Origin: Escherichia phage vB_EcoS_AHS24
Length of the DNA stretch: 46,440 nt
Reading direction: 5' to 3' (one strand)
Sequence record: NC_024784.1
Shown here: positions 1,078 to 11,634 of the stretch, piece after piece
Layout of the letters: every line of letters begins with the position of its first letter
Position numbering within the stretch: position 1 is the stretch's first letter
Program-made: the position numbers and the translations under genes
Notes under the pieces: generated by a model
Database searches by the model: none
What the model was told of the DNA's origin: nothing
What the model saw: the letters and a program-made list of their open reading frames with translations, nothing else

Positions 1078-2641
1078 AATAATTGTATGGGAAGACTTAA
1101 CATACCCAGAAAAGCTAGCTATAAAGGCACTATCAACTCATAGCTTCGAGGGTTTCTTAAGGGTGTGGTTTCAAATAAGTCAATCTGAGCGTTATATTCC
1201 TAACTGGCACCATAAGTACCTCTGTAGAATCATCGATGAGGTTATTAGCGGTCAACGCAGAGATACAATCATTAACGTAGCTCCCGGGGCCGGAAAAACC
1301 GAGATTACATCCATTCACTTCCCAGTATACTCAATGCTTAAACTAAAGAAGGTTCGCAATCTTAGCCTGTCATTCTCAGATAGCCTCGTGAAGCGTAACT
1401 CTAAACGGGTTCGTGACCTTATCAAATCGACAGAATTCCAGGAGTTGTGGCCCTGCAAGTTTGGCACATGTAAGGATGATGAGATTCAGGTTCTTGATGA
1501 TTCTGGTAAGGTTAAGTTTGAATCAATATCAAAAGCAATTGGCGGTCAGATTACAGGCGCTCGCGGTGGATATATTACAGATAACTATAGCGGCTGTTTG
1601 ATGCTTGATGATGTAGACAAAGCGGATGATATGTTCAGCAAAGTCAGGCGAGAGGCCGTGCACACTCTTCTCAAAAACACCATTCGCTCACGTAGGGCGA
1701 GTAGCGTTAAAGGTAAAGCTACGCCAATTCTGTCAATTCAGCAAAGGCTTCATACTCAGGATTCAACGTGGTTCATGACTTCTGGTGGTATGGGTATCGA
1801 CTTTGATGTAGTGAAGATACCGGCGCTGGTCACTGAAGAATATGTGAATGAACTCCCTGACTGGATTCGTGAGCAGTTCGAGAAGGACGTGCTTTCATCC
1901 GAGTACGTCGAGCGAGATGGTGTTAAGTATTACAGCTACTTCCCGCAGAAGGAATCTGTGCATGACTTGATGGCAATGTGGGACTCAGATCCGTACACAT
2001 TCCTAAGCCAGTACCAACAATCTCCAGTAGCTCTGGGTGGAAACCTGATCAACGTAGATTGGTTTGCTCGCCTCGATGAGAATAACAGGCCGCCAGTCAA
2101 GTATGACTACCGTTTCATTACGGCTGATACTGCCATGACCACTAAGAGTTATAGCGACTACTCAGTATTCCAGCTATGGGGGCGCAAAGATAACAGGCTT
2201 TATCTTCTGGATATGGTAAGGGGTAAATGGGAAGCACCTGAACTTGAGCAAACTCTTCTGGACTTTGAGAGTAAGCATAGAGCAGCTAGTAAGACAGATG
2301 GTATATTGCGCAAGGTTATTATCGAGAAGAAAGCGTCTGGAATAGGACTTATCCAGTCGGCGGGTCGGGTAATGCGAACTCCTATCGAGCCTTTCGTTCC
2401 AGATACAGATAAGTTAACCAGGGTGATGAGCGCACTGCCACAGATTAAAGCTGGTAACGTAGTTCTGCCTGACTCTGCGCCATGGCTTACCTCGCTATTA
2501 ACCGAGTTCTCGGCGTTCACTGCTGACGATTCTCATCCCCATGATGACATTGTGGATACGACAACAATGGCCATCAACTGTGAATTGAACTTGAGTGACG
2601 ATCCGAGAGCCCGCTTAATGAGGCTAGCTGGCGTTAAGTAA
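1052..2641 (+). CDS. terminase large subunit
   Basis: 529 aa; Walker A-like VAPGAGKTE; acidic nuclease-type C-terminus; alternative start ATG 1070 overlapping HNH stop. Confidence 0.85.
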   Translation: MGSSAIMSEIIVWEDLTYPEKLAIKALSTHSFEGFLRVWFQISQSERYIPNWHHKYLCRIIDEVISGQRRDTIINVAPGAGKTEITSIHFPVYSMLKLKKVRNLSLSFSDSLVKRNSKRVRDLIKSTEFQELWPCKFGTCKDDEIQVLDDSGKVKFESISKAIGGQITGARGGYITDNYSGCLMLDDVDKADDMFSKVRREAVHTLLKNTIRSRRASSVKGKATPILSIQQRLHTQDSTWFMTSGGMGIDFDVVKIPALVTEEYVNELPDWIREQFEKDVLSSEYVERDGVKYYSYFPQKESVHDLMAMWDSDPYTFLSQYQQSPVALGGNLINVDWFARLDENNRPPVKYDYRFITADTAMTTKSYSDYSVFQLWGRKDNRLYLLDMVRGKWEAPELEQTLLDFESKHRAASKTDGILRKVIIEKKASGIGLIQSAGRVMRTPIEPFVPDTDKLTRVMSALPQIKAGNVVLPDSAPWLTSLLTEFSAFTADDSHPHDDIVDTTTMAINCELNLSDDPRARLMRLAGVK

Positions 2642-6297: not shown

Positions 6298-6314
6298 TTA
6301 ACCGTGTAAATATA

Positions 6315-6336
6315 ACCCGCTTCGGCGGGTTTTTTA
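6315..6336 (+). terminator. intrinsic terminator
   Basis: ACCCGC-TTCG-GCGGGT + T-run. Confidence 0.75.
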
Positions 6337-6391
6337 TTGCCAAAATTCTGTTACAATCATTAAGACTATTAACCGATATGGAGTAAATGAA

Positions 6392-6844
6392 ATGGCTTTA
6401 GAGTTTATGGAAGTTGTAGCTAAGACTTACGGCGACCTGGAGAGGTTAGTAAAGGCAAAAATGCTGGAAGGATGGATGCCATTTGATAGCTTAATTAACA
6501 ATAGATTTACTATCGCAATTGTTATGGTTAAGGGTAGTGATGCGCAGCTTACCGACTTTAGGATTCTCGGTGATAGCACTAGAGTTAAATTAATAAGCAA
6601 GGCTAACAAATTAATTGCTGATGACCCTGAGTGGGAGGTTTTCGGTCACCCTCAAATATTTGGCGCTGACGATTACATAGTTTCATTATCAAAAGGCTTT
6701 AAGGGAACTACTGGTAGGGATGGCATGGCTGGCCCACAAGGACCGCAAGGACCGCGCGGCGAAGTTGGCCCACAAGGTCCGCAGGGTGAAAAAGGAGATA
6801 CTGGACCTCAGGGACTAAAAGGTGATAAAGGTGATAAGGGGTGA
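6392..6844 (+). CDS. collagen-like repeat protein, N-terminal part
   Basis: C-terminal Gly-X-Y run [43 protein letters not shown] ending at GGGG-TGA. Confidence 0.6.
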
Positions 6845-7277
6845 TCCAGGAGCGCTCGTAACATGGAAAAAATTTAACCTAGTTAACACAGTTGGTTCAG
6901 GGGTGGACACTCAATTCCCTGGTATAGCTAACACTTGGTTTAGGGTGCAAGTAACATCATCATCAAGATTTACATTCTTTGCTCTAAAGGAAGGGTCTGG
7001 AACAACAAGCATTGATGGCGACGTTAAGTACAACGATGAGGATGATACTTATCGCAGGGTTAAGTATTCTGGAGTGTTCACATCGGCATCGAACTACACA
7101 TTTATTAACACAGGATTCGGCGTGACCTCAGCTAGATGTGTAGAGTTTTACACCTATCTAAATGATGGCTCTAGTGGTTATTTTTACAGGGTTGAGGTTT
7201 TCATTGCTGGCAGGCCTGCATTTACCACAATTACACAACCAGACTTCACCGTTAGAATAACAAGACTTGATGCCTAA
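6822..7277 (+). CDS. collagen-like protein, C-terminal part (frame +1 continuation)
   Basis: Overlapping ORF in +1 frame begins ..[10 protein letters not shown] continuing the Gly-X-Y register; likely one gene with the upstream ORF. Confidence 0.5.
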
Positions 7278-11002: not shown

Positions 11003-11317
11003 ATGGCGAAATTCAAATTAAAATTAGGCGCGCTCCCTGATTTCAAGCTTCCGGTTAAGTTCCAGATGATCAACGGCGAGGAAGCTGAGGTTATCTTCAA
11101 TGCCAAGCACCGTAAGGCTAAGGAGATTCAGGAAGTATTCCAGACCGAAGGCCTTAAGGATTTTGACTTTGTTAAAGAGATTTGCAGCGGCTGGAACCTT
11201 GAAGAAGAATTTAACGACGAGAACATCGAAGAGCTGGTATCTCTGTTCCCCGCATCCGTTCTGGCACTGACTAATGCTTACATGCAAGCTCTGGCGGGCC
11301 AGCGCGCAAAGGTCTAA
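11003..11317 (+). CDS. tail assembly chaperone (G-like)
   Basis: 104 aa acidic protein directly upstream of tape measure. Confidence 0.55.
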   Translation: MAKFKLKLGALPDFKLPVKFQMINGEEAEVIFNAKHRKAKEIQEVFQTEGLKDFDFVKEICSGWNLEEEFNDENIEELVSLFPASVLALTNAYMQALAGQRAKV

Positions 11318-11379
11318 AGCGCGCAGTATATCTACAGTATCAAAGAGAGCCAACGGACGCTGAACTTGAAGCCATTGGA

Positions 11380-11634
11380 ATGCGGCGTTCCGATTACGAA
11401 GATGAGGAGCCAGAGGAGTTACACTTCGATGATGACATGATGCTGGCATGGACTGTTTATCAGGCAGCTTCAACTCAATGGCGTGTAGGTATGAACGGCG
11501 CTACCGGAATAGATTATTCAGTACTCCCTTTCCTCTTTGATGTGTATAATGTCAAGGACAAAGAGATGACTTTAAATGACTTGCGAATACTGGAGTGCAA
11601 AGCACTTGAGATGATGCAAGTAAGGCAAAAATAA
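11380..11634 (+). CDS. tail assembly chaperone extension (T-like, -1 frame)
   Basis: ORF in -1 frame relative to upstream chaperone; frame stays open back across the chaperone stop (from ~11296). Confidence 0.4.
   Translation: MRRSDYEDEEPEELHFDDDMMLAWTVYQAASTQWRVGMNGATGIDYSVLPFLFDVYNVKDKEMTLNDLRILECKALEMMQVRQK

Follow-up and report, generated by a model that had tools for sequence, protein, structure and literature searches.

The genome of Escherichia phage vB_EcoS_AHS24 contains a collagen-like gene that is distributed over two overlapping reading frames, the first of which ends at a stop codon directly after a short run of G residues. This arrangement raises the question of whether the phage makes its collagen-like protein by a programmed +1 ribosomal frameshift, encodes two separate proteins, or carries an ordinary single-frame gene in which one base has been gained, either in the phage itself or in its published sequence. 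The sequence analysed, hereafter the window, is the entire 46,440 bp of vB_EcoS_AHS24 (KF771238), and coordinates refer to it unless stated otherwise. AHS24 and its relatives AHP24, AHP42 and AKS96 are T1-like siphophages (Drexlerviridae, Rogunavirus), and all four were sequenced with Roche/454 GS-FLX+ Titanium reads and assembled with Newbler (Niu et al. 2014, PMC4070988).

The gene lies in the head module, flanked by genes with Pfam matches to the capsid cement protein (Phage_cement, PF22758; 5803..6297) and the major capsid protein (Major_capside, PF09950; 7358..8302). A rho-independent terminator-like hairpin on the plus strand (6314..6331) separates the cement-protein and collagen-like genes, and a terminator is annotated in AHP24, AKS96 and AHP42. 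A GGAG ribosome-binding site, read from the sequence, is found on the same strand at 6380..6383, 8 nt 5' of the ATG at 6392, which is the sole translation start of the ancestral collagen-like gene. The first ORF (6392..6844, plus strand; annotated as AHS24_08) encodes 150 residues, of which 1-101 form an N-terminal domain (6392..6694, plus strand) and 102-150 a collagen stalk of 16 Gly-X-Y triplets (6695..6841, plus strand). This stalk, i.e. the last 49 residues, matches the Pfam Collagen profile (PF01391) above the gathering threshold (E=5.5e-8; 32.9 bits against a cut-off of 27.2). The ORF ends in GAT AAG GGG TGA, with the premature in-frame TGA at 6842..6844 (plus strand) followed by a U in the transcript (UGA-U). 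The +1 frame stays open over 6822..7277, and GenBank starts the gene AHS24_09 within it at GTG 6831. From 6843 to 7277 (plus strand) this frame contains the remainder of the ancestral gene, namely the last triplets (DP GAL), a predicted β-rich C-terminal domain of ~139 residues and the stop codon, a segment corresponding to the family phrog_31616. Skipping one base anywhere within AAGGGGT keeps the Gly-X-Y register (GDK GDK GDP GAL) and yields a protein of 294 residues with 18 triplets at residues 102-155. An earlier examination of this DNA, the sequence-only reading, had described both the Gly-X-Y run that stops at AAG GGG TGA and the continuation of the repeat register in the +1 frame from 6822; re-reading of the sequence and its frames confirms both, with the second frame leading into a C-terminal part of 144 residues.

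The single collagen-like protein of ~300 residues that had been proposed on these grounds is also borne out by the close relatives. With one G removed, the translation of the AHS24 gene is 100% identical to AHP24_08 over 294/294 residues, and the product of 6843..7277 taken separately is 100% identical to residues 151-294 of that protein. As the removal of a single G reproduces AHP24_08 exactly, each ORF is one half of a single gene, and the pair is not a chance juxtaposition. In a gene alignment the GGGG run of AHS24 (6838..6841, plus strand) is GGG in all four of AHP24, AKS96, AHP42 and BECP10 (4/4), one G in AHS24 apparently being a lineage-specific insertion behind the frameshift. The extra G in the GGG run converts AAG-GGT-GAT to AAG-GGG-TGA, shifting the frame and creating an immediate stop from bases that in the intact allele lie within the codons GGT GAT. 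AHP24 and AKS96 both have a single annotated CDS of 885 nt for the gene, and the BECP10 copy is one 849-nt "collagen-like protein" CDS. Across the 43,723 nt that align between AHS24 and AHP24 (KF771236) there are 23 substitutions and exactly one indel, which is the extra G; the first 42.9 kb differ by 8 substitutions. Elsewhere in the comparison of these two genomes, 61 of 69 substitutions cluster in AHS24 42960..45165, and the segment 43724..43751 replaces about 308 nt of AHP24. In contrast to the 8 substitutions in the first 42.9 kb, this clustering indicates that recombination has made 42960..45165 a mosaic patch within the early genes.

Judged from these alignments, the ancestral state is plainly an uninterrupted gene, and the split is either an ordinary frameshift mutation or a 454 sequencing error in a normally single-ORF gene. 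Either way the finding is an ordinary one, a one-base insertion in an already known single-ORF collagen-like structural gene. The sequence-only reading had itself offered a sequencing error in the G run or a true mutation as alternatives to a frameshift site, and it is this pair that the evidence supports.

More distant homologs give the same picture. The slot between the cement and major capsid genes holds a homologous gene in UDF157lw, e4/1c, phiKP26, JK06, Rogue1, Sd1 and AugustePiccard, and together with AHP24, AKS96 and BECP10 these provide ten uninterrupted syntenic homologs, every one of which (10/10) is a single ORF without an internal stop. All ten share a common plan of an N-domain of ~100 residues, one or two Gly-X-Y runs and a C-domain of 132-156 residues. 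The tblastn matches across the junction are likewise all single-piece, and the fused protein matches a single family, phrog_5073, over residues 1-292. No stop, frame change or conserved GGGG-UGA was found at the collagen/C-domain junction in any homolog examined; in particular, the junction is free of a frame change or stop in the four near-identical relatives, in L013 (a Logan metagenomic contig) and in six more distant syntenic homologs. Homologous protein searches recovered two proteins with the C-domain and four with the N-domain profile, mostly fragments and too shallow a set for a useful alignment, and an exhaustive search of representatives gave eight relatives of the N-domain. Both the GGGG and the GGG junctions were sought in IMG/VR and JGI metagenome contigs, where neither allele was matched.

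One way to account for two annotated genes is that the second ORF is translated from an internal start, GTG 6822 or 6831, each after a GGUGAU, so that the phage would make an anchor-plus-stalk protein and a free C-domain. The GenBank start of AHS24_09 at GTG 6831 and the anti-Shine-Dalgarno-complementary GGUGAU motifs just 5' of it agree with this. However, the identical GTG and GGUGAU are present inside the intact genes of the relatives, where they are ordinary Gly-Asp-Lys codons, a stand-alone C-domain is encoded by no homolog, and a free C-domain would be without the stalk and the conserved N-domain. A 159-residue protein called in L013 was considered as a stand-alone C-domain homolog and rejected, as it is the tail of a TAA-cut gene, i.e. 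the remnant 3' of an in-frame nonsense codon. Independent translation of the second ORF is hence a quite improbable account. The sequence-only reading had looked to homologs with two separate, independently started proteins as the outcome that would speak against a fused product; the homologs instead proved to be single uninterrupted ORFs that lack the shift site, a result that equally refutes programmed recoding.

Programmed recoding had nevertheless been the main claim made for this site, in the form of an evolved +1 frameshift of the prfB type, wherein tRNA-Gly, paired with GGG beside a shifty UGA, would slip onto GGU under stimulation by the SD-like AAGGGG, setting the ratio of short to full-length product. 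Several features lend this a formal plausibility: in formal terms GGG-UGA qualifies as a shifty stop, the exact ancestral protein results wherever in AAGGGGU a +1 slip takes place, the complementarity to the 16S rRNA 3' end is strong (-16 kcal/mol against -10.7 for prfB), and structural genes of the Listeria phage PSA use stop-adjacent +1 shifts (PMC5009743). The claim was not borne out, as the site is found in AHS24 only, the relatives and syntenic homologs read through in one frame, and the tested elements of the prfB context differ. The prfB site consists of an SD-like AGGGGG, followed by UAU or UCU as the spacer codon, then CUU UGA as the shifty stop and finally a C, the enhancing base at that position (PMC13245932). 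In AHS24 GGG would occupy the P site, it is preceded by AAG rather than UAU/UCU, and base 6845 is T, i.e. a U after the UGA in place of the C of a weak termination context. The in-frame UGA after GGG is not CUU UGA, and the +1 codon GGU would keep two G:C pairs along with a wobble mismatch. A search for an SD-like element one spacer codon before the shift codon found none, since the pairing of AAGGGG, or of the longer UAAGGGGUGAUC, includes the GGG and UGA codons and so overlaps the P-site codon itself. No downstream stimulatory structure was detected in the fold of 6845..6934 (-19.2 kcal/mol, z=-0.59 against shuffled sequences), although such a structure is optional for +1 sites.

The rRNA complementarity has a simpler origin in the coding of the collagen repeat. 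The anti-Shine-Dalgarno-complementary stretch GGUGAUAAGGGGUGAUC (6830..6846, plus strand), which covers the shift and stop codons, is a by-product of Gly-Asp-Lys codons, and GGUGAU occurs three times upstream because the stalk is encoded by GGU-GAU-AAR. The copy of GGUGAU at 6830..6835 is complementary to another portion of the 16S tail, and the intact alleles have it just as AHS24 does. Duplex energies with the anti-SD are -16 kcal/mol for the AHS24 allele, -12.5 for the intact allele and -10.7 for the prfB element, and the complementarity is to this extent a property of the unshifted gene too. The centre of UAAGGGGUGAUC is formed by the GGG and UGA codons, and as long as these fill the P and A sites the element cannot pair with the 16S rRNA. 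Considered in its own right, UAAGGGGUGAUC (6835..6846) can pair with nearly all of the 3' tail of E. coli 16S rRNA, leaving one bulge, for a duplex energy of -16 kcal/mol. Of the 12-mers taken from AHS24 at 3-nt steps, only about 0.7% attain a value of even -10 kcal/mol; UAAGGGGUGAUC arises from the choice of Gly-Asp-Lys codons plus the extra G. The lesson for annotation is that a stop beside a G-rich anti-SD-like run in collagen-coding sequence should not be taken as evidence for recoding, since a motif of this kind follows automatically from GGU-GAU-AAR codons.

Time is a further difficulty for the proposal. As AHS24 and AHP24, the latter with the intact gene, differ by only 8 substitutions in 42.9 kb, there was no time for a recoding signal to evolve, and conservation of the shift site and of the two-frame arrangement among homologs is nil. 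The UGA aside, none of the testable features of the class is present here, and an evolved signal at this site appears exceedingly improbable. On the strength of these comparisons, programmed ribosomal frameshifting is refuted as an explanation of the split. Elsewhere in the window, a tail-assembly-chaperone pair is located 5' of the tape measure gene (11003..11634). Relative to the first ORF, 11003..11317, the ORF 11380..11634 is shifted into the -1 frame; this frame is open from 11275 and overlaps the last 43 nt of 11003..11317. The overlap of the two frames contains GCA AAG G, and the pair is a candidate case of the conserved siphophage -1 frameshift of the G/GT type.

Two further mechanisms that act on homopolymers were considered and set aside. 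Phase-variable tracts are typically about 7 nt or longer and polymorphic in length among isolates, but the tract here is only G3 or G4, all four relatives have G3, and the other disrupted alleles of the gene are point nonsense mutations. Transcriptional slippage, which needs long A/T runs, was ruled out as the AHS24 tract is only G4.

The remaining choice is between a real mutation and an artefact of sequencing. 454 pyrosequencing characteristically miscalls the length of homopolymers, with errors growing with run length. It is accordingly a possible, if doubtful, reading that the true AHS24 sequence is GGG, with an intact 294-residue gene, and that the extra G is a Roche/454 homopolymer over-call in the Newbler consensus. 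The data are of the GS-FLX+ Titanium/Newbler kind, the discrepancy is one of homopolymer length, as is typical of 454 errors, and the two genomes are otherwise nearly identical over 42.9 kb. Moreover, the GGGG allele was found in no other sequence in the homologous protein and metagenome contig searches. The SDS-PAGE patterns of all four phages were reported as identical, although the seven virion proteins that mass spectrometry identified did not include the collagen-like protein (PMC4070988). Against an artefact stands the rest of the AHS24-AHP24 comparison. In the aligned region, the two 454 assemblies contain 440 homopolymer runs of at least 4 nt (113 of at least 5 and 25 of at least 6), and these are of equal length in both except for the G run. 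As all other runs agree, including all 113 of at least 5 nt and every other 4-nt run of two independent assemblies, and as the AHS24 assembly has a coverage of 74.6x (PMC4070988), consensus homopolymer errors must be rare in both. A consensus error would be expected in a longer run. Furthermore, the sole discrepancy falls in a gene that makes up 2% of the aligned sequence and is independently inactivated in two other relatives; given this small share and the two other broken copies, relaxed selection explains it better than random error.

The two other lesions differ from that of AHS24 in kind and position. In AHP42 a G to A change (AHS24-equivalent position 6866, plus strand), 24 nt downstream, turns TGG into TGA and truncates the gene, which is annotated as two CDS. 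In L013 an in-frame TAA (1127..1129 of the contig) lies where the collagen run begins, in the X position of one of the early Gly-X-Y triplets, and the junction downstream reads AAG GGT GAT CCT in frame. Three different lesions are hence seen at three sites in AHS24, AHP42 and L013. The three disrupted alleles suggest a dispensable, loss-prone gene, and point to relaxed or negative selection on it during propagation. We therefore favour, as moderately probable, a genuine slippage-type insertion in a dispensable gene of the head-fibre or decoration type, whose product would consist of the N-domain and stalk without the distal domain. The reality of the insertion, the dispensability of the gene and the nature of its product as a trimeric capsid-associated fibre are all inferred, whereas the confinement of the insertion to AHS24, its standing as the only indel against AHP24, the single-ORF homologs and the absence of the prfB context elements are shown directly.

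Should the additional G be genuine, ribosomes could slip by +1 at GGG-UGA spontaneously and at a low level and thereby supply small amounts of the full-length protein, but this would be incidental leakiness and not a programmed system. A stronger version holds that the real G, together with the near-perfect complement of the 16S tail in UAAGGGGUGAUC fused to GGG-UGA, supports +1 slippage at a level that meaningfully compensates the indel. AHS24 would then produce the full-length fibre alongside a stalk-only protein, and the site would be a newborn 'corrective' frameshift site only one mutation old; we regard such meaningful compensation as improbable. Compensated ('savior') indels in G runs have a precedent, e.g. 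the G7 run of herpesvirus thymidine kinase (Atkins et al. 2016, PMC5009743).

In the collagen-like protein the N-domain is moderately conserved, with an identity of 26-41% among syntenic homologs across genera that reaches 99% in UDF157lw, and the C-domain is of constant size with a sequence diverged almost beyond recognition. The stalk varies in length, with 12 residues lacking in BECP10 and more than 60 triplets present in other homologs. Two 12-nt direct repeats TGGCCCACAAGG (6730..6741 and 6766..6777, plus strand), 36 nt apart, bound the in-frame 36-nt (12-residue) deletion of BECP10, which is consistent with repeat-mediated slippage altering stalk length. In UDF157lw a much longer stalk connects the near-identical N-domain to an unrelated C-domain, while L013 has an N-domain of 32% identity and a C-domain of 82% identity. 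By this comparison, the domains on either side of the collagen repeat reassort. The overall arrangement is the pattern expected of a trimeric fibre, with a predicted conserved virion-anchoring end and a fast-evolving distal end for binding. The disruption of the gene in three independent relatives and the free swapping of its C-terminal domain fit a dispensable, fast-evolving surface fibre. Profile searches of the N- and C-domains against PDB sequences returned nothing significant, and a Pfam search at E-values up to 10 gave no match for either globular domain. An AlphaFold single-sequence model of the C-domain has a pLDDT of 46.7 and is unreliable, but hints at an all-β domain.

The split has also left its mark on sequence databases. 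Two spurious "genes", AHS24_08 and AHS24_09, owe their existence to one homopolymer base in a genome of the 454 era, and they have spread into resources. The split halves seem to have seeded the PHROG families phrog_22681 and phrog_31616 (157- and 148-position profiles, respectively). An evidently meaningless 'DNA polymerase' label is attached to the N-terminal half, JK_26, AHP42 gp08 and the phiKP26 protein, and has spread via RefSeq and PHROGs. Homologs are also named 'tail fiber protein' in databases on account of the collagen repeat. The role we prefer to infer is that of a head fibre or decoration protein, as suggested by the position in the head module and the analogy to gp12 of the Bacillus phage SPP1. 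Gene 12 of SPP1 is, we presume, also located directly 5' of its major capsid protein gene. SPP1 gp12 is a predicted collagen-like trimer at the hexamer centres with a proposed role in host adhesion (PMC7602432). The two resemble each other as collagen-like auxiliary proteins, in a comparison by description only; the AHS24-type protein, a putative capsid component, is much larger and has distinct globular N and C domains.

As in the E. coli RF2 gene prfB (AGGGGG-UAU-CUU-UGA-C), the UGA of the AHS24 site directly follows a codon whose tRNA might re-pair in the +1 frame, and a G-rich sequence complementary to the anti-SD is nearby; the AHS24 P-site codon is however GGG instead of CUU, and its SD-like element overlaps the shift codon, while that of prfB is 3 nt upstream. 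The AAG spacer, the U as fourth base, the absence of any RF2 autoregulatory logic and the lack of conservation set it further apart. The capsid and tail-shaft genes of the Listeria phage PSA share with it a stop-adjacent +1 shift that leads to a C-terminally extended structural product (PMC5009743), but the PSA sites use a proline codon and make two products, whereas that of AHS24 is an indel in one genome whose relatives translate the gene conventionally. The G7 run of herpesvirus thymidine kinase is similar in being a G-run indel that low-level ribosomal slippage could partly compensate; it differs in that the AHS24 run has only four G residues and that compensation in AHS24 is hypothetical, with no known selective benefit. 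The closest counterparts are AHP24_08, AKS96 gp08 and the BECP10 gene, which have the same position between the cement and major capsid genes and the same N-domain, Gly-X-Y stalk and C-domain as AHS24, and from which AHS24 is distinguished by GGGG in place of GGG and, hence, by two annotated CDS.
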